A DNA stretch of 64,000 nt from Pantanalinema sp. (lineage in GTDB: Bacteria > Cyanobacteriota > Sericytochromatia > S15B-MN24 > UBA4093): NCBI GenBank assembly GCA_036704125.1, contig DATNQI010000019.1, positions 971 to 64,970 of the forward strand, in the 5' to 3' direction. The number at the start of each line of letters is the position of its first letter. The stretch's first letter is position 1. A program made the position numbers and the translations under genes. Positions 5,635-17,330 of the stretch are shown one piece after another. The notes beneath the pieces were generated by a model. That model was not told the DNA's origin. It worked only from the letters and a program-made list of their open reading frames with translations, and searched no databases.

Positions 5635-7065
5635 ATGTCGTCAGGATCCATGGACTACGCCCCGGAAGATTCGAAGCTCCTCTTCTCCCCGGCCCTCGCT
5701 CCCGACAGGGCCCTCGGCTCGGCCCTCCACGCCTGGCTGCTCGCTTTGCGCGAGGCCGATCGGCGCCTCATCCTGTTCCTCAACGATGGGGCCTGGACGA
5801 CGGCCGCCGCGCTCGGCATGCTCGCCTGCTCGGCTTTGCCCCTCGCCCAGGGCGGCGGGCTGTTGCTCGCGTGGCTCGTCGTCTCGATGGGCTGCTTCTA
5901 CTCCTCGGATCTCTACTCGCTCGGCTCGCGGGGGGCCCGCCCCCTGCTCAGGGGGATGGCGCTCGGGGCCTTGGCGGCGGCGCTCGTCGCCTGGCGCCTG
6001 GGGGCGCCCGCCGAGCTGTTCTTCGCCCTCGTGGCGGCGGCATGTCTTGGGGGCGGTGCCCTGCTGATCAGCCGCAGCCTCCTCACCGACCTGTTCGCCA
6101 GCGCCGCTTCGAGTCGCCGGATGCTCTTGCTGTGCGAGGAGGCAGAGGCCCTGGAGGTCGTCGACGAGATCCGGCGCCACCCCCAGTGCGGCCTGCTCGC
6201 GCTGGGCCTGGTGACCGACGCGGCAGCCGCTCCGAGCCTGGACACCCTTTCGGTGCTGGGGGCACCGAGCCACCTGCCCGCGCTGGTCGCTCACCTGCAC
6301 TCCGACAGCATCCTCGCAGGCTCCGGCGCCCTGCGCGGAGCCGAGTGGCGAAGCCAGCTCGCCCCCCAGGAGGAAACCATCGACCTGCCCAGCCTCTTCG
6401 AGCGCCTGAGCCGCCGGATCCCCGTGCGCTACCTCGACGAGCGCTACTTCATCGAGCGCTTCACCTGGACGCGAGGCTTCGGCTACCGGATCGCCAAGCG
6501 CCTCATGGACCTCGCCTTCACCCTTGTTGGCCTGGTCCTCGCCCTCCCGCTCTTCCCCTTCGTCGCGGCCGCCATCTACCTGGTCGATCGGGGCCCGCTC
6601 TTCTACTCTCAGGAGCGCGTGGGCCTCAACGGGCGCAGGTTCAAGGTCTACAAGCTCCGCACCATGCGCGTCGACGCCGAGAAGGGCGGGGCGGTGTGGG
6701 CCAAGGCCGACGACGACAGGGTCACCCCGGTCGGGCGCTTCTTGCGCCGGAGCCGCCTCGACGAGGTCCCTCAGCTCTGGAACATCCTGCTGGGGGAGAT
6801 GAGCCTGGTCGGGCCGCGCCCCGAGCGGCCCGAGTTCGTCGCGGAGCTTGAGCGCGCGATCCCCCATTACCAGTGCCGCCACCTCGTGCTGCCCGGCCTC
6901 ACGGGCTGGGCCCAGGTCCGCTTTCCTTACGGGGCCTCGGTCCAGGACTCCGAGGAGAAGCTCAACTACGACCTCTACTACCTCAAGCACCGATCCTGGT
7001 GGTTCGACCTGCTCATCCTCCTGCGGACCGTCGGGGTGGTGCTCAACAAGACCGGCGCGCGCTGA
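5635..7065 (+). CDS. undecaprenyl-phosphate sugar phosphotransferase (WbaP/EpsL-like priming glycosyltransferase)
   Basis: The C-terminal bacterial sugar transferase domain is present (…KVYKLRTMRVDAE…DEVPQLWNILLGEMSLVGPRP…), with N-terminal TM segments. The RBS GGGAGG precedes ATG 5635. Confidence 0.85.
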   Translation: MSSGSMDYAPEDSKLLFSPALAPDRALGSALHAWLLALREADRRLILFLNDGAWTTAAALGMLACSALPLAQGGGLLLAWLVVSMGCFYSSDLYSLGSRGARPLLRGMALGALAAALVAWRLGAPAELFFALVAAACLGGGALLISRSLLTDLFASAASSRRMLLLCEEAEALEVVDEIRRHPQCGLLALGLVTDAAAAPSLDTLSVLGAPSHLPALVAHLHSDSILAGSGALRGAEWRSQLAPQEETIDLPSLFERLSRRIPVRYLDERYFIERFTWTRGFGYRIAKRLMDLAFTLVGLVLALPLFPFVAAAIYLVDRGPLFYSQERVGLNGRRFKVYKLRTMRVDAEKGGAVWAKADDDRVTPVGRFLRRSRLDEVPQLWNILLGEMSLVGPRPERPEFVAELERAIPHYQCRHLVLPGLTGWAQVRFPYGASVQDSEEKLNYDLYYLKHRSWWFDLLILLRTVGVVLNKTGAR

Positions 7066-7164: not shown

Positions 7165-9177
7165 ATGGCCGTAGAATCCGCCCCCATCGCGATCGAGCTC
7201 CCCGACGGGTCCAAGCGTGAGGTCCCTGGGGGCTCGACGATCGCAGACCTCGCCGCCTCGATCAGCCGCAGCCTTGCCAAGAAGGCCGTCGCCGCCCGCC
7301 TCGACGGCGAGCTGGTCGACCTGTCGCGTCCCCTGACCCGCGAGGCCAAGGTCGAGATCCTGACCCAGGACGCCCCCGAGGCCCTCGAGGTCCTGCGCCA
7401 CTCGACCGCGCACCTGATGGCCAACGCCGTCCAGCGCCTCTTCCCCGGCGCCAAGGTCACCATCGGCCCGGTCACCAGCGACGGCTTCTACTACGACTTC
7501 GACTACGAGCGCGCCTTCACCCCCGAGGACTTCGAGAAGATCGAGGCCGAGATGCGCAAGCTCTCGGGCGCCGACCTGAAGGTCAGCCGCGAGGAGGTCG
7601 CCGCGGGTGGCGGTGCGGCCAAGGCCGGCGAGTTCGAGGCCCAGGGCGAGCCCTACAAGGCCGAGATCCTGCGCGACATCCTCGAGAAGGACCCCCAGGC
7701 CGTGATCTCGCTCTACCACCAGGGCGACTGGTCGGACCTCTGCACCGGCCCGCACCTGAGCTCGACCGGCATCATCAAGCACTTCAAGCTGCTGAGCACC
7801 GCGGGCGCCTACTGGCGCGGCTCCGAGAAGAACAAGATGCTCAACCGCATCTACGGCACCTCCTACTTCTCGGACGCCGACCTCAAGGCCCACCTGACCC
7901 GCCTCGAGGAGGCCGCCAAGCGCGACCACCGCAAGCTCGGCAAGGAGCTCGAGCTGTTCATGTTCTCGGAGGCGGCGCCGGCCATGCCGTTCTTCCTGCC
8001 CAAGGGCGCCTACATCTACAACAAGCTCGTGGCCTTCATCCGGGATCTCTACGATCGCTACGACTACCAGGAGGTGATCACCCCGCTCGCCTACAGCCCG
8101 GAGATGTTCCGCACCAGCGGTCACCTCGGCAACTACAACGAGAACATGTACCGGCTGTGGACCGAGGACGAGTGCGCCCACGCCGAGCCGGGGCACCTGC
8201 ACGAGGAGCTGCAGGCGGACTCCTTCGTGCTCAAGCCGATGAACTGCCCGAGCCACTGCCTGATCTTCGGTACCCGGCGGCGCTCGTACCGCGAGCTGCC
8301 CTGGCGCGTGGCGGATTTTGCCCGCCTGCATCGCTACGAGCGCGGCGGGGTGGTCCACGGCCTGGCGCGCGTGCGGTCGTTCTCGCAGGACGACGCGCAC
8401 ATCTTCTGCACGCCCGAGCAGGTCCCCGGCGAGATCGAGAGGTTCATCAAGTTCCTCTACGAGGTCTACGAGGTGCTGGGCTTCAGCGAGGTCCAGATCA
8501 AGCTGGCGACCCGCCCCGAGAAGCGCATCGGCTCCGACGAGCTCTGGGATCGAGCCGAGGCGGCGCTGGCCAAGGGCCTCGAGAGCGGCGGCCTGCCCTA
8601 CGAGATCCTTGAGGGCGAAGGGGCCTTCTACGGCCCGAAGATCGAGTTCCACCTGAAGGACGCGATCGGCCGGACCTGGCAGCTGGGCACCATCCAGTAC
8701 GACTCGAACCTGCCGGATCGCTTCGACCTGATCTACATCGGCGAGGACGGCAAGGAGCACCGGCCCGTGATGCTGCACCGCGCGATCCTGGGCTCGCTGG
8801 AGCGCTTCTTCGCGGTCTACCTGGAGCACTGCGCGGGGGCGTTCCCGCTGTGGCTCGCCCCGACCCAGGCCGTCGTCATCCCCATCTCCTCGGAGAATGA
8901 CGACTACTGCACCGAGGTCCTCGCCAAGATGAAGGCGGCGGGCCTGCGCGTCGAGCTGGACAACCGCAACGAGAGCCTCAACTACCGCATCCGCGAGGCC
9001 CAGGTCCAGAAGATCCCCTACATGCTGGTCGTCGGCAAGAAGGAGGTCGAGCAGGGCACCCTGGCGCTGCGCAAGCGCACCGGCGCCCAGGAGGTCCTGA
9101 GCGTCCAGGAGGTCATCGACCGGCTGGTCGCCGAGGTCCAGACCAAGGCCCTTCCCCAGGCCGTCGAGGCCAAGTAG
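7165..9177 (+). CDS. thrS: threonyl-tRNA synthetase
   Basis: TGS domain N-terminus, class II core motifs (…HRDHRKLGKELELF…, …FHLKDAIGRTWQLGTIQYD…) and an anticodon-binding C-terminus. AGGAGG lies 6 nt before the ATG. Confidence 0.95.
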   Translation: MAVESAPIAIELPDGSKREVPGGSTIADLAASISRSLAKKAVAARLDGELVDLSRPLTREAKVEILTQDAPEALEVLRHSTAHLMANAVQRLFPGAKVTIGPVTSDGFYYDFDYERAFTPEDFEKIEAEMRKLSGADLKVSREEVAAGGGAAKAGEFEAQGEPYKAEILRDILEKDPQAVISLYHQGDWSDLCTGPHLSSTGIIKHFKLLSTAGAYWRGSEKNKMLNRIYGTSYFSDADLKAHLTRLEEAAKRDHRKLGKELELFMFSEAAPAMPFFLPKGAYIYNKLVAFIRDLYDRYDYQEVITPLAYSPEMFRTSGHLGNYNENMYRLWTEDECAHAEPGHLHEELQADSFVLKPMNCPSHCLIFGTRRRSYRELPWRVADFARLHRYERGGVVHGLARVRSFSQDDAHIFCTPEQVPGEIERFIKFLYEVYEVLGFSEVQIKLATRPEKRIGSDELWDRAEAALAKGLESGGLPYEILEGEGAFYGPKIEFHLKDAIGRTWQLGTIQYDSNLPDRFDLIYIGEDGKEHRPVMLHRAILGSLERFFAVYLEHCAGAFPLWLAPTQAVVIPISSENDDYCTEVLAKMKAAGLRVELDNRNESLNYRIREAQVQKIPYMLVVGKKEVEQGTLALRKRTGAQEVLSVQEVIDRLVAEVQTKALPQAVEAK

Positions 9178-9233: not shown

Positions 9234-10736
9234 CTAGTGGACGCGGCTGGGGAAGGGCATCTCCATCTGGCGGGTGGGGACGAGGTTGCGGTTGTGGCTG
9301 TAGCCGATCAGCTGGTTCAAGTCGTTGACGCGCCGGCCGATGTCGTCCAGGTGACGGACCGCGCCGGTGACGGGATCCGGGACGTCGTGGCCCGTCATGA
9401 AGGGCGAGAGGGTGGCGGGCTCGTTCGCCTTGCGCGGCCGGACCTGGAGGAAGGCCTCGCCGGGGGGGAGGGTCTGCAGGCCGCCCTCGCGCAGGTGGCA
9501 GCCGTTGCAGGTGTTGAGCGAGAACTTGAAGCGGGCCTCCGGGTTGACGCCCGAGGCCTTCCAGAACAGGGGCGGATCGCTGATGCCCGCCGGCGGGAAG
9601 TCGCCGGCGCCGGGCACGAGCGCCGAGCCCGCGAGCATCCCGGCGGGAACCTGGTGCTGCTCGGCGAGGATGTCCTGCTCGTTGCGCCTGATGTAGTTGG
9701 CGAGCGCCTGCGTGTCGTTGAGCGCGATCTGCGGGGTGAGGGCCACCGGCGCGGGTTCGAGCTGGCCGCCGCGGGCGACGTGGAACTCGCGCATCTCCCA
9801 GGGGTGGTCCTTGAGGAACTGGAAGAAGTTCACGAAGTTGACGGGGTCGGCGGGGTTGGGGGGGCCGAACTTCGCGATCGCCTCCTGGGTGGAGAGCTCG
9901 ATCTCGTTGGTGCGCAGCTGGTTGAGGGCGCTGCCGTTGGGCTTCGCGCGGTTGGCGCCGCCCTTGGCGAAGACGTCGGTCAGCTTCTGGAGCTCGGCGT
10001 TGTACTGGGGCCCGAAGTTCATGGTGCCCAGCTTGTGCCACCGCATGGCCCAGTCGGTGACGAGCCCCATGCGGATCTTGGCCAGCTGCTTGTTGTTGGG
10101 ATCGTCCATGCGGTCGTACTTCATGCCGCCGAGCATGTTGAAGTCGACGCCGTACTCGAAGATGACGGTGAACAGGGGGCGGAACGGGTTGTTCTCGCCC
10201 TGGTCCCTGAGGTCCACCACGCCGAAGACCAGGCGGCCCTCGCCGGCGTTGCCCACCTTGCGCAGGTCGACGCGATTGGTGATGGCCAGAAGGCGGAAGG
10301 GCGCCTTGCTCATGTCGAGCCGGCTACCACCGCTCGCCTGTTTCCATGGGTCGATGATCAGGTCCTTGATCGCCTTGCGGGCCTGGACCTTCTGGCCGTT
10401 GACGTAGACGTCCTTGGTCCACTGGTTGAGCCAGTTGAGCACGAACTGCTCGGTGTTCTTGCCGCCCGAAAGGCCGTTCATCAGGGCGCCGAAGCTCCAG
10501 GGGCCCATGCCCTTGGCCCGGTAGTCGTTGACCACGCTCAGGTCGGTGACGACCAGCTCCTTGTGGGCGGCGATGGGGGTCGGCTCGCCGGGAGCGAAGG
10601 AGCCGCCCGCCTGGGCCTCGCGAGAGTCGCCGCTCGGGGCGGCCAGGTTGCCCGCCTTCAGGTTACAGCCGACCAGGGAGAGCGCCATGGTGGACACGAC
10701 CACCCCGCTCACGATGGATCCGATTCTGCTTCGCAT
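9234..10736 (-). CDS. lipoprotein with a single c-type heme-binding motif (CNGCH); function unknown
   Basis: ATG at 10734-10736 gives a lipobox signal (MRSRIGSIVSGVVVSTMALSLVGC). One CxxCH is present (SLNTCNGCHLREG). The track ORF extends further upstream, but that stretch lacks coding character. Confidence 0.55.
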   Translation of the reverse strand: MRSRIGSIVSGVVVSTMALSLVGCNLKAGNLAAPSGDSREAQAGGSFAPGEPTPIAAHKELVVTDLSVVNDYRAKGMGPWSFGALMNGLSGGKNTEQFVLNWLNQWTKDVYVNGQKVQARKAIKDLIIDPWKQASGGSRLDMSKAPFRLLAITNRVDLRKVGNAGEGRLVFGVVDLRDQGENNPFRPLFTVIFEYGVDFNMLGGMKYDRMDDPNNKQLAKIRMGLVTDWAMRWHKLGTMNFGPQYNAELQKLTDVFAKGGANRAKPNGSALNQLRTNEIELSTQEAIAKFGPPNPADPVNFVNFFQFLKDHPWEMREFHVARGGQLEPAPVALTPQIALNDTQALANYIRRNEQDILAEQHQVPAGMLAGSALVPGAGDFPPAGISDPPLFWKASGVNPEARFKFSLNTCNGCHLREGGLQTLPPGEAFLQVRPRKANEPATLSPFMTGHDVPDPVTGAVRHLDDIGRRVNDLNQLIGYSHNRNLVPTRQMEMPFPSRVH

Positions 10737-11055
10737 GCACACACACCTCTCTAGCTGATGACGGAGCCGATTGCCGCGCCGGGGCGAACTCGATCCGGTC
10801 GGTCTGCGTCGGTTCTTGCTTCGTGTGGCGTTGCACATACGCCGTGGCAGGAAGGGGGCGATGGGGCCGGGGGACGGGGCCACTGCCAGGCAACCGCGTA
10901 TCATCCTAGCCAGAGTCCCCCCATAATACTTGGTTGGTTTCATCAAGCTTGGTTGTTCGGATCGAAGCTCCCAGAGAGCTTGGGGCGAACTGAACAAGCG
11001 AGCGTCATTCCTCCGCCGCTATGATCGGCCGGCCCATCGCGGCGAGGAGGATCCC

Positions 11056-12369
11056 ATGTTCATTCACATGATCGGCCTGAGCCATCGGACGGCGCCGGTC
11101 GCGGTGCGCGAGCGCGTCGCCGTGCCGGCGCACGGCCTGCAGGGGGCCCTCTCGGATCTCCTGGCGGATCCCGGCGTCCTCGAGGGGGTGATCCTCTCGA
11201 CCTGCAACCGGACGGAGGTCTACGCGGTCACGGCGGATCCATCGCTCGGCATCGAGGCCCTGCGCCGCTTCGCGGCGCGCGGCGGTGCCGACGCGGGGGG
11301 CTTCGAGGCGCGCGCCCAGGGCGAGGCCGTCCTACACCTCATGCGGGTCGCCGCGGGGCTCGAGTCCCAGCTGCTGGGCGAGCACCAGATCCTCGCCCAG
11401 ATCAAGGAGGCTCTCGCGGCCGCGCAGCACCAGCGCGCCGCCGGCGCCATCCTGGATGCGCTCTTTCGCTTCGCGCTCAGCGCGGGCAAGCGCGCACGAT
11501 CCCAGACCGAGATCGCGCGCGGGGCCGTCTCGGTCTCGGGGGCCGCCATCCACCTGGCGCGCGAGCATTTCGGCTCGCTGCGGGGCCGCGCCATCCTCAT
11601 CCTCGGCAGCGGCAAGATGGGCGAGCTCGCAGCCCGCCACCTCGCGGGCTCGGGGCTCGATCGGATCTACGTCGCCAGCCGCACGCAGGGGGCGGCCCGG
11701 CGCCTCGCCGAGGCGACGGGCGGCGAGGTGGTCTCCTTCTTCGCCCTGGACGAGGTCCTCGCCCGGGTGGACGTCCTGGTGTGCTGCACCGGGGCGCCCC
11801 ATCACGTGCTCTCGGCCTCGGACCTCGCGGGCCTTCACGCGCGCCGGGGCGGTCGCGAGCTGGTGCTCCTGGACCTCTCCATGCCGCGGAACCTGGATCC
11901 CGCCATCGCGGATCTGCCCGGCATGCGCCTGTGGGGCCTGGACGACCTCGAGGCGATCGCCCGCGAGCGCCGGCAGGAGCGCGCGGGGGTGGTGAGCGAG
12001 GTGGAGGCCATCCTGGAGGAGGAGCGCGCGGCCTACCTGGCCTGGCTGCGTTACTTCCAGATGAGCCCCGCCATCGCCTCCTTGCGGGACAAGGCCCACC
12101 AGGTCCGCGCCGGCGAGCTGGAGCGCTTCCTGGACAAGTACGCCGAGGCCTTCTCGGGCGATCAGCGCCGCCTGATCGAGGAGCTGAGCCAGGCCATCGT
12201 CAACAAGCTCCTGCACGGCCCCCTCTCGCGCCTGCGGGGCATGAGCGCGCAGGAGCAGCGGCAGCACGTCGGGACCTTGCAGGACCTGTTCGACCTTCCG
12301 GTCGAGGACTTCGCCGTGCACTACCGGCGGCGGCTCGTCGCGCGCCATGACGCCCTTCCCTCGCCCTAA
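11056..12369 (+). CDS. hemA: glutamyl-tRNA reductase
   Basis: HemA N-terminus (MIGLSHRTAPVAVRE…STCNRTEVY), an NADP-binding GxGxxG (LILGSGKMGE) and a C-terminal dimerisation helix. GAGGAGGA precedes ATG 11056. Confidence 0.9.
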   Translation: MFIHMIGLSHRTAPVAVRERVAVPAHGLQGALSDLLADPGVLEGVILSTCNRTEVYAVTADPSLGIEALRRFAARGGADAGGFEARAQGEAVLHLMRVAAGLESQLLGEHQILAQIKEALAAAQHQRAAGAILDALFRFALSAGKRARSQTEIARGAVSVSGAAIHLAREHFGSLRGRAILILGSGKMGELAARHLAGSGLDRIYVASRTQGAARRLAEATGGEVVSFFALDEVLARVDVLVCCTGAPHHVLSASDLAGLHARRGGRELVLLDLSMPRNLDPAIADLPGMRLWGLDDLEAIARERRQERAGVVSEVEAILEEERAAYLAWLRYFQMSPAIASLRDKAHQVRAGELERFLDKYAEAFSGDQRRLIEELSQAIVNKLLHGPLSRLRGMSAQEQRQHVGTLQDLFDLPVEDFAVHYRRRLVARHDALPSP

Positions 12370-12559
12370 TTTCGGCATGATCACTTGATTCGAGGCGGCG
12401 ATCTCTTTCTCCGTGATCATGATCGCCGCATTTGCGGCGATCGGGTGAAAAAACTTGCGCCCAGTGCATTTAGACGCGGGATCTCTGGGTAGAATAGCAG
12501 TAGAAAGCTTTTCGACGTTCGATCGCTCCTAAGATCGACATAACATGAGGACCACGAAC

Positions 12560-13306
12560 ATGACCTATCTCGAAGCCGCGCAGTTGATTCTGGCAGAGGC
12601 CCGCAAGCCCCTTACCGAGGCCGAGATCGTGTCGCGGGCGAAGCGGAAGGGCCTGATCGCCCCGCGCACCAGGGACCCGGAGCGCTCGATCGGGGTGGTC
12701 CTCAAGCGCGCCTCGCAGAACCCCGGGTCCAGCTTCGAGGCGACCGCGCCGCACACCTGGCAGCTCAAGCCCTCCAAGATCCTGGAGCACCCGATGAGCA
12801 TGCGCGAGGCGGCCCTCAAGATCCTGACGCTCGCGGGCAAGCCCCTCCACTACCAGGAGATCACCAAGCGCGCGATCCGCGCGGGCCTCATCCGCCCCGA
12901 GGGCCGGACCCCCGCCTACACCCTGCGCGCCCGGGTCGGCGACGACATGCAGCGCAACGCCGACTCGCCCTTCGAGCGCGTCTCGGACGGCACCTACGGC
13001 CTGCGCGTCTGGCCCAAGGACATGCTCAAGGCCAAGAAGACCGCCCGCAAGGTCAAGGCCAAGGCGATCGCCAAGCCCGCCGCGGTCAAGGCCGCGAAGG
13101 CCGCCAAGCCCGCTAAGCCCGCCGTCCTCAAGCCGGTGAAGGCCGCCAAGGCCACCGTCACCAAGCTCGAGGCCAAGGAGCCCCGCAAGCCCCGCGCCAA
13201 GCGCGTGGTCGAGACCGTCGCCCCCGTGGTGCCGATGAAGCCCCGCGTGAGGGTCGCCGACTCCGAGTCGCTCGCGCGCCTGCAGCGTAACAAGGCGGCG
13301 CACTGA
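12560..13306 (+). CDS. DNA-binding protein with two tandem HARE-HTH (RpoE-delta/Mrr-N-like winged-helix) domains and a histone-H1-like Lys/Ala-rich tail
   Basis: Two repeats of the pattern 'eAAlkIL..agkPL…EI..ra.r.GLI.p…tp..tl' are followed by AKAAKAAKPAKPAVLKPVKAAKA. Start is either ATG 12560 (GAGGA upstream) or ATG 12545. Confidence 0.6.
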   Translation: MTYLEAAQLILAEARKPLTEAEIVSRAKRKGLIAPRTRDPERSIGVVLKRASQNPGSSFEATAPHTWQLKPSKILEHPMSMREAALKILTLAGKPLHYQEITKRAIRAGLIRPEGRTPAYTLRARVGDDMQRNADSPFERVSDGTYGLRVWPKDMLKAKKTARKVKAKAIAKPAAVKAAKAAKPAKPAVLKPVKAAKATVTKLEAKEPRKPRAKRVVETVAPVVPMKPRVRVADSESLARLQRNKAAH

Positions 13307-13386: not shown

Positions 13387-13426
13387 GGAGACAAGCGGTT
13401 TCGAGCCGCTTGTCTCGTTTTTTTTG
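13387..13426 (+). terminator. rho-independent terminator (11-bp stem + T9)
   Basis: gagacaagcgg-tttcga-gccgcttgtctc followed by gttttttttgg. Confidence 0.85.
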
Positions 13427-13485
13427 GCGGGGCGCGGGGCAAGACTCCTCGGAGCAGACTCACTGACGCCTTGCAGGTTGATGAA

Positions 13486-14391
13486 ATGACCGACTCCCCG
13501 ATCCTGATCTACGCCTCCGCGGCGCCGCGCGACTGGGTCGCGCGGGTGTTCGAGGCGGCGGGGTATCGGGTCCTGGCGGCCTCGAACGGCCTGACCGCCC
13601 TCGATCAGGCGACCCGGACCACCCCCGCCATGATCGTGGCCGATGCGCGCTTGCCCGGTATCGACGGGGTGGAGGTGTGCCGGATCCTGAAGGGCATGTC
13701 GAGCATGCCCTTCACGCCGATCGTGCTGATCGAGCCCTCGTGCGCGGAGGTGGGCGAGCATGGCCGCTATTCCGAGGCCGACGACGTGTGGATCGCGCCG
13801 AGCACCCCTCAGGAGGTCGCGGCCCGCCTCAAGCTGCTTCAGCTGCGCCTGGATCGCCTCGCCGCCCTGCGCGGCGATCGCGATCGCCTCTACGAGCTGG
13901 CCTACCACGACCACCTGACGGGCCTGCCCAACCGCCGCTTCCTGGACGGGGCCCTGGCCGACGCGCTGGTCGATGCGCGCGCCCATGATCGGCCCATGGC
14001 GATCCTCCTGTTCGACGTGGATCGGTTCAAGAGCATCAACGATCGCTGGGGCCACCCGGTGGGCGATCGGGTGCTGCAGGAGATGGCGGAGGTCCTGCGC
14101 CGCAGCTCGCGCCGCCGGGACGTGATAGGGCGCTTCGGGGGCGAGGAGTTCCTTTACCTCTTGCCGGGCCACCCCCTGGACGAGGCGGTCCTGCAGGCCG
14201 AGCGGGTGCGCTCCGAGCTCGCCGCGCACCCCTTCTCGGCCCCCGACGAGGACGTGTGCCTCACGGTGAGCGTGGGGGCCACCGAGGTTCGGGGCGACGA
14301 CACGCCCCACTCCGTCCTCGTGCGGGCGGATCGCCTGCTCTACGAGGCCAAGCGGGGCGGCCGCAACCGGATCGTCTCTTTGAGAAGCTAG
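13486..14391 (+). CDS. response-regulator receiver fused to GGDEF diguanylate cyclase (PleD/WspR-like)
   Basis: REC domain (…MIVADARLPGIDG…) and a GGDEF domain with an intact GGEEF motif (RFGGEEFLYLL). An alternative in-frame ATG at 13471 is possible. Confidence 0.8.
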   Translation: MTDSPILIYASAAPRDWVARVFEAAGYRVLAASNGLTALDQATRTTPAMIVADARLPGIDGVEVCRILKGMSSMPFTPIVLIEPSCAEVGEHGRYSEADDVWIAPSTPQEVAARLKLLQLRLDRLAALRGDRDRLYELAYHDHLTGLPNRRFLDGALADALVDARAHDRPMAILLFDVDRFKSINDRWGHPVGDRVLQEMAEVLRRSSRRRDVIGRFGGEEFLYLLPGHPLDEAVLQAERVRSELAAHPFSAPDEDVCLTVSVGATEVRGDDTPHSVLVRADRLLYEAKRGGRNRIVSLRS

Positions 14392-16664
14392 CCCTGCAGG
14401 CCGGGCTGCCAGAGCCCGACCCTGGAGCCCTGGACCATGGCGCCGTACTTGGCGAGGAGCCCCGGCAAATCGGAGGTCGGGTCGCCGCCCCAGACCGCGG
14501 CGATGACGTCGTGGTCCGGCCGCGCCCAGCTCCGGTACAGCTCGAAGGCGTCGCGGGGCCGGTCGGAGGCCTCGAGGGCGCGCATGAGCCCCTGCACCAT
14601 CACCCCCTCGGCGATCTTCGCGATCTCCTTGCTCGGCGTCTGGCGGCTCGTGCCGAGGCGCTTGGGGGTCGTCTCGGCGCGGATCGCCTCGCGCTCGGCC
14701 TCGGTGATCCCGTAGAGGTCGAAGACCCGGGCGTCGATCGCCTCGAGGGCCTCGAGGGCGCGCTTGCGCCGAAGCTCCATGGCCGAAAGCCGCTCCTTGG
14801 CGGCCGCCTCCAGGGCCTCGGGGGTCTCCCAGAGCGTCTCGGCGATCGTCGTGCTGAGGTCCCAGCGCGAGGTCTGCGAGAGCCAGTCGAGGACCAGGGC
14901 TGCGTCGCCCGCGATGGCGCGCTGCTCTCGCTCGGTCGCGATCAAGAGGGGCAAGGATCCGAGCGTCGGCGTGTCCAGGTGAAGGGTGAGCTGCGCCTTG
15001 TTGGCGATGACCAGCTGGAAGTAGGCCTCCAAGAGGCGCGAGTTGAGCAGCGCGAGCAGGTAGTGAGGGTTCCAGTCCGACTGGGGCTCGAGCACGTTGA
15101 CGGTGTCGAGCGGCAGGCTGCCCGAGGGCAGGAGGGTCGCGACCACGGCGCTCGCGATGTTCTGGTAGACGATCCGAGGTGAGGAGAGCACGCTCGAGAG
15201 GAAGCGATCGCGCAGGGCGTAGCGGGGGCTGAGGCGCAGGAGGCCCTCGTCGCCGCCGTAGCGCCGGATGTCGCGGCCCCTGACCACCGGGGTCCCCTCG
15301 CTCCACAGGGCGATCGCGCTCTCCCTGGCCGAGATGCCCGCCCCGCGCCGGATCCAGGCCAGGTGCTGCAAGGGGACGCCCGAGACCTCGACCTTGGTGA
15401 TCCAGCCGCCGCTGGTGCGGTTGGCGTAGATCGGCATGGTCGGGCGGTTGCGGAAGAAGCCGTGGCTCTGGGTGCCCAGCTCGCGGAACGAGCCGTCCCG
15501 GAAGGAGTCGAGGCGCACCTCGCCCTGGTCGTCCGGCGCCCAGGGCAAAGCGGCGTTCGAGAACCTGGCCTGGCGGTGCTCGGCGACGAAGGCGATCGTC
15601 TCGAGGTTGACGCCGGGGAAGGCCGCGCCGAGATCCAGGAGGGCCGTCAGCTGCATGTCCTCGACCAGGAGCCTGCGGCACTCGTAGTAGGCGCCGGTGC
15701 GGGTGACGCCGTGGGGGACGACGAGCCCCAGGCGGCCCTTGGCGCGCAGCAGGCGCGCGGATCGCTCGATGAACAGGGCCGTGGTGTCCTGTCGACCGCT
15801 GCCCAGGCGGTAGTGGCGCTGGAAGAAGTGCTTGTCCTGGCTCGAGATCTCGGCCCCGTAGGGCGGGTTGCCCACGATCACGTCGAAGCCGGGCTCGAGG
15901 GTCGCGTCGTGCTGCTGGAGGGTGTTGCGGCCGAGCAGGTTGGCTTTGAGGGGCACCTTGAGCTCGGGCACCAGCTTGAGCTGGACGAAGGCCAGCCGGA
16001 TCTGGGCGAGCTTGAGGGCCCAGGGGTTGAGGTCCACGCCGAACAGGTGGCGCCCCATGACGCGCTTGAGGCGCAGGTAGCGGCCCTCGGCGCCGGTCTG
16101 CGAGGTCCAGACCCGCTCGAAGAGGGCCTCGAGCGAAAGCGACAGGAAGTTGCCGGCGCCGCAGGAAGGATCGAGCAGGCGGAAGTCCTTGGAGAGGGGC
16201 AGGTGCCTGGGCGGCAGGGTCGCCTCGAGCAGGTAGGTCACGATGGGCGCCGGGGTGTAGAAGGCGCCGTGCTTCTTGCGCTGGACGCTCGAGAGGTGGG
16301 TCTCGAACAGGCCGCCCAGCAGTTCGCCGTCCTCGTAGCCCCATTGCTGGGCCGAGAAGAGGTCGTGCAGGGTCTCGGTCAGCTCCGGCACCGAGGGGGC
16401 GCCGAGCTTGAGGGGCAGGGGGGCCGCGTCCGCGAACAGCGGGGTCTGGTCGCCGCCCAGGCCGCTCAGGGTGTCGAAGAGGGCCTTCTCGAGGGCTTCG
16501 CGATCGCCCGGGTGCTGCAGATGGCAGAACAGGGCGTTCGCCAGCACGAAGCAGGCGGCGGGCGGCTCGTGGACCGACAGGGCGTCGGCCAACAGGGCCA
16601 CGCCGTGGGTCAGGAGGCCCTCCTTGGAGAGCTCGGAGCGGGTGCGGGGGCTCGTGGTCTGCAT
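14388..16664 (-). CDS. solitary gamma-class N6-adenine DNA methyltransferase (Eco57I/TaqI-like N6_Mtase with C-terminal TRD)
   Basis: Motif X/I (GAFYTP…DPSCGAGNFL) and motif IV (NPPYG) in gamma order, with a long C-terminal target-recognition region and no PD-(D/E)XK or HsdR-like nuclease N-terminus. ATG at 16662-16664; the track ORF begins with TTG at 16700. Confidence 0.8.
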   Translation of the reverse strand: MQTTSPRTRSELSKEGLLTHGVALLADALSVHEPPAACFVLANALFCHLQHPGDREALEKALFDTLSGLGGDQTPLFADAAPLPLKLGAPSVPELTETLHDLFSAQQWGYEDGELLGGLFETHLSSVQRKKHGAFYTPAPIVTYLLEATLPPRHLPLSKDFRLLDPSCGAGNFLSLSLEALFERVWTSQTGAEGRYLRLKRVMGRHLFGVDLNPWALKLAQIRLAFVQLKLVPELKVPLKANLLGRNTLQQHDATLEPGFDVIVGNPPYGAEISSQDKHFFQRHYRLGSGRQDTTALFIERSARLLRAKGRLGLVVPHGVTRTGAYYECRRLLVEDMQLTALLDLGAAFPGVNLETIAFVAEHRQARFSNAALPWAPDDQGEVRLDSFRDGSFRELGTQSHGFFRNRPTMPIYANRTSGGWITKVEVSGVPLQHLAWIRRGAGISARESAIALWSEGTPVVRGRDIRRYGGDEGLLRLSPRYALRDRFLSSVLSSPRIVYQNIASAVVATLLPSGSLPLDTVNVLEPQSDWNPHYLLALLNSRLLEAYFQLVIANKAQLTLHLDTPTLGSLPLLIATEREQRAIAGDAALVLDWLSQTSRWDLSTTIAETLWETPEALEAAAKERLSAMELRRKRALEALEAIDARVFDLYGITEAEREAIRAETTPKRLGTSRQTPSKEIAKIAEGVMVQGLMRALEASDRPRDAFELYRSWARPDHDVIAAVWGGDPTSDLPGLLAKYGAMVQGSRVGLWQPGLQG

Positions 16665-16793
16665 GCTCCCATTATCCGGCGCCGCCCGCACGGGTGGCAA
16701 GGGGCGCTTTTCGGCGGCGGGCGCGCTTAACGGGCCTTAACAGAGCGGAGCGAGGGTGCTACCATGCCCTCGCGCGAAGGAGGCGTCCATCAC

Positions 16794-17330
16794 ATGGAGA
16801 AGCGGGGATTCGAGATCGAGGCGAAGTTTCGCCTGAGGCCCGGGCAGCGCGAGGCGATCGCCCAGGCCCTTTCCGGCTGCTCGCACGAGCGCGCCGTGCA
16901 GGAGGACCGCTACTTCGACGCGGGCCCGGGCCGGGTGCTGCGCCTCAGGCAGGAGAACGGCGCCTGGCTCATCACCCGCAAGGAGGCCCCCACCGTCTCG
17001 GCCGACGGCACCAAGACCCGCACCGAGATCGAGACTCCGATCCCGGTCGACCTGGTCGAGCCGCTCGCCGAGGCCTTCGCCTGGCTGGGGCACCGGCCCC
17101 TGATCGTGGTGAGGAAGGTCCGTGACGCCTACGAGATCGACGGGGCGACGGTCTGCCTGGATCGAATCGAGGGCCTCGACGACGACTTCGCCGAACTGGA
17201 GGTGCTCGCCCAGGAGGCCACGGCCAAGGGCGCTCTCGACGCCCTGCGCGCGCGCTTCGGCCTCGAAGAGGACCAGATCCTGCTCCACAGCTACGCCCGG
17301 CTCCTGGCGGAGGCGCGCGGACAGGCTTAG
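16794..17330 (+). CDS. CYTH-domain protein (CyaB/ThTPase-like triphosphate tunnel metalloenzyme)
   Basis: An N-terminal EIEAKFRL motif and tunnel-like acidic/basic residue pattern. The RBS GAAGGAGG lies 10 nt before ATG 16794. Confidence 0.7.
   Translation: MEKRGFEIEAKFRLRPGQREAIAQALSGCSHERAVQEDRYFDAGPGRVLRLRQENGAWLITRKEAPTVSADGTKTRTEIETPIPVDLVEPLAEAFAWLGHRPLIVVRKVRDAYEIDGATVCLDRIEGLDDDFAELEVLAQEATAKGALDALRARFGLEEDQILLHSYARLLAEARGQA

Follow-up and report, generated by a model that had tools for sequence, protein, structure and literature searches.

In Mrr-type endonucleases, tandem HARE-HTH winged helices appear, from the sequences of these proteins, to be a common sensor module. These Mrr-like and presumed modification-dependent enzymes, which combine HARE-HTH domains with an Mrr_cat nuclease domain of the PD-(D/E)xK type, carry at least two HARE-HTH copies at the N-terminus, joined by short linkers. 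The N-terminal domain of the RNA polymerase delta subunit, a Firmicutes protein, belongs to the same Pfam family. Here we analyse a relative of these proteins from the Sericytochromatia, encoded in a 64,000-nucleotide stretch of contig DATNQI010000019.1 (Pantanalinema sp., assembly GCA_036704125.1; this whole stretch is called the window below). Its 248 residues hold two tandem HARE-HTH domains followed not by a nuclease but by a basic tail rich in lysine, alanine and proline (K/A/P).

Such a tail recalls linker histones H1/H5, which share the disordered, K/A/P-rich C-terminal tail but differ in the globular domain, that of the protein studied here not being PF00538; in yeast Hho1p, a linker histone, there are two globular domains. 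H1-like tails are also known from nucleoid proteins of GC-rich or specialized bacteria: mycobacterial HupB/MDP1, Streptomyces HupS, Chlamydia Hc1 and Pseudomonas AlgP. Their K/A/P repeat tail likewise sits on, or itself serves as, a DNA-binding protein, but the folded part, where there is one, is HU-type and not a winged helix. To our knowledge, HARE-HTH is present in none of them.

In eukaryotes, ASXL1 and other chromatin proteins have HARE-HTH in a chromatin context and not in a nuclease, as is the case here, but as a single copy inside a large multidomain protein, whereas the window protein is small and its copies are in tandem. HARE-HTH has been proposed to be a DNA-binding module that distinguishes states of modification (PMC4738411, PMC10853773, PMC12839542). 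For ASXL1-type proteins a role as a DNA-modification reader has been proposed and partly tested (PMC6591016, PMC4738411), and in one study DNA carrying N6-methyladenine was pulled down by the ASXL1 HARE-HTH (PMC6591016). Our literature search found no paper connecting HARE-HTH with nucleoid proteins.

Architecture and distribution of the protein

A Pfam search matched PF05066 (HARE-HTH) in two stretches of the protein, at 103.1 bits against a cut-off of 25.9 (E = 1.1e-29). This bears out the two tandem HARE-HTH winged helices proposed in an earlier sequence-only reading of the locus, and places the repeats in that family and not among ordinary helix–turn–helix domains of another. The first copy is the more divergent; the best Pfam stretch (residues 84–156 of the 253-residue open reading frame (ORF) as listed) is winged helix 2, the canonical copy, which follows the pattern GKPLHY..EIT...GRTPAYTLRARVGDD...F.RV.DGTYGLRVW and has many invariant columns. 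AlphaFold models built from 18 and 35 family sequences fold residues 1–70 and 79–149 as two winged helices, each with three helices and then a beta-hairpin wing (H-H-H-beta-beta), at a predicted local distance difference test score (pLDDT) of 81–94. The interdomain linker has a pLDDT below 50 and the core a predicted template modelling score of 0.48. At these values a fixed mutual geometry was discarded and no orientation can be claimed; in the models the pair resembles beads on a string, with a flexible linker in between.

The tail is H1-like, as the same reading had it. Residues 153–222 contain K19, A19, V8 and P7 among 70 positions (27% each for K and A) with a net charge of +19, and are predicted to form a short helix and then disorder (pLDDT ~40). 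Weak tandem periodicity of 9 and 42 nt is seen in the tail, and its length differs between orthologues. Beyond it, a conserved C-terminal motif occupies the final 26 residues and ends in a predicted helix; this motif is present in 13 loci and was not found in other proteins of the window or of the 42 loci compared (labelled with L numbers below). Net charge over the whole 248 residues is +33, of which the core contributes +10, the tail +19 and the C-terminus +4. The protein ends 96 residues past the second winged helix, with no match to the Mrr_cat nuclease at E ≤ 1; a local Mrr profile matches the distant loci but not the Sericytochromatia HARE family. Neither the Linker_histone globular domain PF00538 nor the HU-type fold (Bac_DNA_binding) was matched in the protein.

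The listed ORF runs from 12545 to 13306 (253 residues), and several other ORFs overlap the locus. ATG 12560, with a protein beginning MTYLEAA, is the real start, because all orthologues begin MTYLEAA or MMTYLEAA, a GAGGA Shine–Dalgarno sequence lies before it (GAGG(A/G) precedes the start in all orthologues in the alignments), and the ATG at 12545, which we rejected, lacks in-frame conservation among orthologues. Compared with the 91%-identical orthologue in L036, codon changes were 11 synonymous to 3 non-synonymous in the core, 4 to 0 in the C-terminal motif and 9 to 12 in the tail, the composition of which is kept despite fast evolution. The third-position-biased substitutions, together with a C-terminal motif kept beyond the tail in 13 loci, establish that the frame is correct, and purifying selection acts on the core and the C-terminal motif. 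GC-rich genomes yield many long spurious ORFs, several of which overlap this locus, and the sequence-only reading had itself raised the possibility that a mis-called frame had produced a low-complexity tail. Such an artefact, or a chance low-complexity ORF, is refuted by the codon bias and C-terminal motif just described, by the Pfam match and by 35 orthologue clusters; a Shine–Dalgarno sequence and a terminator also flank the ORF, and we regard this explanation as negligible.

Orthologues were sought by a word-indexed search over 5.8 billion proteins and by an exhaustive HMMER scan over 1.84 billion representatives. The first of these gave the 35 orthologue clusters, all of which carry PF05066 and across which 62 core columns are invariant; in the second, true orthologues comprised only three clusters at 50% identity. 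All named genome matches are metagenome-assembled genomes (MAGs) of Candidatus Sericytochromatia, except for one contig labelled Stenomitos, and the family as a whole is confined to the Sericytochromatia, non-photosynthetic relatives of cyanobacteria. The Stenomitos sp. contig (L002, DATNQJ010000441.1) is 6 kb long and assigned to the MAG of a photosynthetic cyanobacterium; it has the same HARE gene, with a promoter region almost identical to that of Sericytochromatia loci, and is probably mis-binned. Within the family, subfamily a, which includes the window protein, has the K/A/P tail and the C-terminal motif, and subfamily b (P0021–P0034; L006–L008 and L034, gene at 8001–8831) has a zinc-ribbon-like CxxC-(~30 residues)-CxxC insert in place of most of the tail. 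Searches with tblastn against phage and plasmid collections found no relative, and a phage or plasmid origin was rejected on this basis; no PADLOC defence-protein model matches the HARE protein.

Outside the orthologues, the closest relatives (E 1e-50 to 1e-10) carry two to six tandem HARE-HTH copies. Mrr_cat was found in 58 of the 147 nearest representatives, AAA_5 in 6 and STAND NTPase domains in 5. At GTDB loci outside the Sericytochromatia, all seven two-HARE proteins (from Pontiellaceae/Pontiella, Kiritimatiellae, Lentisphaerae, Methanoculleus, Desulfobacca and Caldilineaceae) consist of two HARE-HTH domains and Mrr_cat, in 330–367 residues. With these Mrr-type endonucleases the window protein shares the tandem N-terminal HARE-HTH sensor and the motifs PLHY..EIT, GKTPxxT and F.R...G.F.L, but it has a K/A/P tail and a conserved C-terminal helix and no nuclease; the endonucleases are taxonomically scattered, whereas the window family is vertical in one bacterial class. 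The sequence-only reading had called the architecture unusual, which is right for the nuclease-less, basic-tailed version but not for tandem HARE-HTH as such, standard in Mrr_cat endonucleases. What is new here is that the nuclease is absent or lost and a basic tail gained, which gives a known domain family a new architecture and probably also a new functional role; the HARE pair may be a nuclease-less sensor module from the Mrr-type neighbourhood that gained this tail.

The same reading had linked the fold to both Mrr-like proteins and the RNA polymerase delta subunit. That kinship holds, with the Mrr-type proteins closest, but by sequence comparison delta is no more than a remote relative. 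The delta model TIGR04567 (RpoE) scored 14.6 bits against a cut-off of 42, and membership of that equivalog family failed on this score; delta chains in the PDB gave E = 0.28–0.72. Delta has one domain and an acidic, D/E-rich tail where the window protein has two domains and a tail of +19, and the taxonomic ranges of the two families differ.

Promoter DNA and the adjoining methyltransferase

The 175 nt upstream of the listed ORF (12370–12544) have a G+C content of 50.3%, against 68.7% (standard deviation 4.3) for the window, and include its lowest-GC 175-nt stretch, so that the AT-rich region noted earlier is real. Both inverted repeats listed in that earlier reading are present and a third, alternative pairing was added (Table 1). 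Inverted-repeat pairs of 9-mers number 4, compared with 0.12 in 2000 dinucleotide shuffles, and four were attained by 0.2% of these. All the upstream inverted repeats are built on GATC-containing words, and the eight GATC sites of the region are the window maximum for any 175-nt stretch (~2 expected from low-GC window segments).

Some 185 nt before the start are conserved in L036, L001, L002, L037, L038, L039 and L030, and the genes farther upstream differ. Mean column identity is 68% over the whole promoter alignment and ~0.8 within the conserved block, with GATC columns at 0.91 compared with 0.80 for the rest of the region; GATC positions common across the clade lie at -145, -139, -121, ~-80, ~-39 and -26 relative to the ATG. 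The conserved parts are the right half of the repeat cluster (GTGATCATGATCGCYGCRTTTG..CGATCGG, kept in L036, L001, L002, L037, L038 and L039), an A-tract, GGGTAGAATAG and two GATC pairs in the 5′ untranslated region. The A-tract is possibly UP-element-like, an assignment made by position only. The -10-like TAGAAT box of the sequence-only reading stands, within GGGTAGAATAG, which is kept in all but one of the eight sequences aligned for the clade, window included (L039 has GGGTAAAATAG). A consensus scanner returned no full sigma-70 promoter because the -35 element is poor.

The palindromes had been described as a leader, and this part of the reading is not upheld. They lie ~60–125 nt upstream of the inferred transcription start and so are DNA elements of the promoter, not part of an RNA. 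A transcribed structured leader or riboswitch was rejected on this position, on weak folding (palindromic part marginal, z = -2.0; 5′ untranslated region z = +0.5, no better than shuffles) and for want of a credible Rfam match: the best E values for the upstream region were 0.11 and 0.67, far under gathering scores, and the whole window gave no matches. Nor do the palindromes form a terminator of hemA, as they have no T-run and their sequence is kept where the upstream gene is divergent and not hemA. A terminator-like hairpin on the minus strand at 12457–12477, inside the HARE promoter region, has a 7-bp stem followed by AAGTTTTTTC; its T-run is the conserved A-tract read on the other strand, and the hairpin is probably incidental because it is not conserved in orthologues. 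A 12-bp genome-wide spacing of GATC, considered as a binding signature, was uninformative, with only a coding period-3 signal seen.

The promoters of other clades contain few GATC sites, and where the window clade has its -10 box they show TATACT (as TTGTAT-16-TATACT) or TACAAT. In one of these clades the HARE gene is preceded, at a distance of ~190 nt, by a perfect 22-bp palindrome, GTGTGCACACATGTGTGCACAC (L003 and L005, both 5805–5826; L032, 7805–7826; a variant in L004 at ~5808–5825), which holds two of only four GTGCAC sites per locus. Judged by sequence, upstream palindromes are a shared theme across clades, their sequences differing while the winged helices are conserved, and this combination argues against a simple specific operator–autorepressor pair.

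The HARE gene lies between hemA (glutamyl-tRNA reductase), which ends at 12369, and a response-regulator/GGDEF gene at 13471–14391. With its own promoter region and a strong terminator it is monocistronic, and it is a single, chromosomal, housekeeping-like gene. Beyond the GGDEF gene is a convergent gene for an orphan N6-adenine DNA methyltransferase. Such a methylase gene adjoins the HARE gene, directly or after a GGDEF gene, in 11 of 11 subfamily-a loci with enough flank (synteny loci: window, L001, L003, L004, L005, L030/31, L032/33, L036, L037 and L039). Across the syntenic loci HARE proteins are 62–91% identical and the methylases (726–770 residues in subfamily a) 48–93%, and the upstream gene varies between hemA, a CHASE2 cyclase, an aminotransferase and threonyl-tRNA synthetase. 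The methylase family is lineage-restricted, with E falling from 1e-94 to 1e-28 outside, and its specificity domain (48–76% identity) is at least as conserved as the catalytic domain (41–84%), as would be the case for an orphan methylase that is passed on vertically and keeps its target. No nuclease gene was found near it in the window, and PADLOC returned only generic MTase_II and PglX-like methylase models. In the window it is divergently paired with a CYTH/CyaB-like gene (16764–17330, +), a pairing that L040, L041 and L042 retain, also where they lack the HARE gene.

Linkage of methylase and HARE-HTH genes recurs outside the Sericytochromatia family, the Mrr-type endonucleases too recurring beside N6-adenine methylases. 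HARE-HTH genes lie directly downstream of HsdM-type N6_Mtase genes in L013 (2946–6022), L016 (3962–6993, where the two genes overlap by 4 nt) and L018 (3098–6753); the first two encode two HARE-HTH domains with Mrr_cat, and the third a single HARE domain with no Mrr detected. On the evidence of gene order, the methylase is a candidate functional partner of the HARE protein. As contextual evidence, the Mrr_cat fusions of the relatives and their place beside methylase genes agree with the published proposal that HARE-HTH discriminates between modification states.

In several relatives two further conserved genes, encoding 127–139 and 608–667 residues, share the methylase operon (L030 12000–14377, L032 11144–13361 and L037 9469–11342, all on the minus strand; L040 4471–6999, plus strand). 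They have no Pfam, NCBIfam or PADLOC match, and are absent from the window, where CYTH comes directly after the methylase.

Table 1 Features of the double HARE-HTH locus, in window coordinates
Feature	Position	Strand	Basis
Coding sequence, double HARE-HTH protein, 248 residues + stop	12560–13306	+	Pfam, orthologue alignment, codon changes
HARE-HTH winged helix 1, residues 1–70	12560–12769	+	Pfam, local hidden Markov model, AlphaFold (pLDDT 81–94)
HARE-HTH winged helix 2, residues 79–152	12794–13015	+	Pfam, alignment, AlphaFold (79–149)
K/A/P-rich basic tail, residues 153–222	13016–13225	+	Composition, charge, pLDDT ~40
C-terminal motif PVVxMKPRxKVADxxSLARLxxxKA, predicted helix at residues 235–247	13226–13303	+	Alignment, model
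Cluster of GATC-based inverted repeats, ~-125 to -60 from inferred transcription start	12376–12442		Repeat finder, shuffles
Inverted repeat CATGATCAC/GTGATCATG	12376–84/12413–21		Repeat finder
Inverted repeat GATCGCCGCA/TGCGGCGATC	12421–30/12433–42		Repeat finder
Alternative pairing GCGGCGATC/GATCGCCGC	12395–403/12421–29		Repeat finder
Eight GATC sites (12379, 12400, 12415, 12421, 12439, 12480, 12521, 12533)	12379–12536		Counts
Conserved A-tract GAAAAAAC, ~-50	12448–12454	+	Alignment
Poor -35 element CATTTA, 17-nt spacer to -10	12467–72	+	Sequence
-10 box TAGAAT inside GGGTAGAATAG	12490–12495	+	Sequence, alignment
Shine–Dalgarno GAGGA, 7 nt before ATG 12560	12548–12552	+	Sequence
Intrinsic terminator, 13-bp stem, 3-nt loop, T8	13388–13425	+	Terminator scan
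Orphan gamma-class N6-adenine DNA methyltransferase (Eco57I, N6_Mtase, TaqI_C; NPPY motif)	14388–16700	-	Pfam

Other observations in the window

The cyanobacterial HIP1 octamer GCGATCGC occurs 45 times in the 64 kb (for example at 1227, 13064, 13874 and 13880), whereas base composition predicts ~2.6; of the CGATCG sites in the window, 44% are in the full octamer. A similar excess, 6–31-fold, is seen in L001, L030 and L036–L042, and HIP1-type enrichment thus seems to reach into this sister lineage of cyanobacteria, which is non-photosynthetic. GTGCAC is strongly avoided in the window, with 2 sites (12316 and 48193) against 21.8 expected by composition and 6.8 by a Markov model, as is TTCGAA (2 against 10.4 expected); this avoidance suggests restriction-modification pressure. 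Beside hemA, the minus-strand ORF at 9234–10997 (587 residues) has no Pfam family but a 66%-identical copy at the equivalent position in L036, and is a real gene.

Possible roles of the HARE protein

We give about an even chance to the HARE protein being an architectural (nucleoid-type) or global DNA-binding regulator, possibly a methylation-sensitive one. A nucleoid-associated role would be a reasonable reading of the architecture, and further hints of it are the conserved promoter of its own with an A-tract, the strong Shine–Dalgarno sequence, the strong terminator and the extreme basicity. DNA would be bound through both the winged helices and the tail, the two winged helices giving a preference for site or modification state and the tail supplying strong non-specific affinity and charge neutralization, leading to compaction or bridging. 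The C-terminal helix may serve in self-association or in docking to a partner. Acting together, these parts would make the protein an architectural or global regulator. The adjoining orphan N6-adenine methyltransferase and the conserved GATC palindromes in the promoter of the HARE gene itself suggest that binding, and probably autoregulation, may respond to adenine methylation; we consider methylation sensitivity doubtful.

An extension of this reading, which we find improbable, is that the Sericytochromatia have a writer–reader pair for chromosomal adenine methylation, in which the methylase would write, the HARE protein would read, and its tail would bring about compaction or silencing of DNA carrying the mark. 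The writer would be the lineage-conserved orphan N6-adenine methyltransferase with its stable specificity domain, and the reader a linker-histone-like protein that had recruited its two HARE-HTH domains from the sensor of a restriction enzyme and would use them to recognize the methyl mark, or GATC/HIP1-type palindromes bearing it.

Several observations weigh against an architectural role tuned by methylation. The HARE-HTH of the delta subunit contacts polymerase and not DNA, and DNA contact by the winged helices is thus not guaranteed. GATC is ~3-fold over-represented genome-wide, for compositional or codon reasons; other 175-nt stretches reach 7 GATC sites compared with the 8 upstream of the HARE gene; and promoters in the two other clades lack the GATC cluster. 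The methylase target need not be GATC. Pairing of the methylase with CYTH is conserved more deeply than its adjacency to the HARE gene, L040 has the synteny of L032 yet no HARE gene beside the methylase, and subfamily-b loci (L006–8 and L034) have no methylase within 6–8 kb, so the adjacency may be inherited synteny within one clade and not a functional link. Published support for methyl-reading by HARE-HTH is also limited and contested (PMC11037411).

Some of the same features would suit a local, sequence-specific transcription factor that regulates its own gene and its neighbours (GGDEF response regulator, methyltransferase and CYTH) through the palindromes, with the tail only raising affinity. 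Each clade keeps upstream palindromes, GATC-based in the window clade and GTGTGCACACATGTGTGCACAC in L003, L005 and L032, and the gene neighbourhood is conserved. An operator and its reader should, however, co-vary, whereas the palindromes differ wholly by clade and the recognition regions are near-invariant; a disordered K/A/P tail of +19 is atypical of local regulators, and the neighbours are convergent or lie beyond a strong terminator. We consider such a regulator unlikely. Extreme conservation of the core, as expected for the partner of a conserved machine, could also point to a delta-like accessory factor of RNA polymerase, in which one or both HARE-HTH domains would dock on the polymerase in the manner of the delta N-terminal domain and the basic tail bind nucleic acid, stabilizing DNA or RNA contacts. 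Membership of the Pfam family of the delta N-terminal domain, the weak matches to delta chains and the single, housekeeping-like chromosomal gene agree with it. Set against this are the TIGR04567 score, the E values of 0.28–0.7 for delta chains where Mrr-type relatives reach 1e-50 to 1e-10, the Firmicutes range of delta, and the two domains instead of one; the basic tail, moreover, inverts the charge of that of delta, which is acidic, nucleic-acid-mimicking and displacing. A delta-like factor is, in our judgement, quite unlikely.

A derivation from defence systems, as a nuclease-less type IV (Mrr-type) remnant that serves in anti-restriction or immunity, as a decoy or as the sensing subunit of a split defence system, would account for the nearest relatives, defence proteins in which HARE-HTH is combined with Mrr_cat, AAA_5 or STAND, and for the adjoining DNA methylase. 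The lack of a PADLOC match and of a nuclease gene nearby in the window, where the methylase stands alone beside CYTH, speaks against it. So does the vertical inheritance of a near-invariant core across the whole class, with no relative in phages or plasmids, unlike patchy, mobile defence genes, and we hold a remnant of this sort to be very unlikely.

For an ordinary local regulator the significance would be modest. A nucleoid role, if true, would add a new fold class to bacterial nucleoid proteins, in a poorly known sister lineage of cyanobacteria. Small at 248 residues, easy to express and with a candidate cognate methylase next door, the protein makes both HARE-HTH methyl-reading and H1-like behaviour testable in vitro. 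A writer–reader pair, if real, would be the first natural system for dissecting such reading and would parallel, in bacteria, the reader-based chromatin regulation of eukaryotes. The HARE-HTH of eukaryotic chromatin proteins such as ASXL1 is thought to have been acquired from bacterial restriction systems; the family described here would show a shift from nuclease sensor to chromatin-type protein occurring within bacteria.

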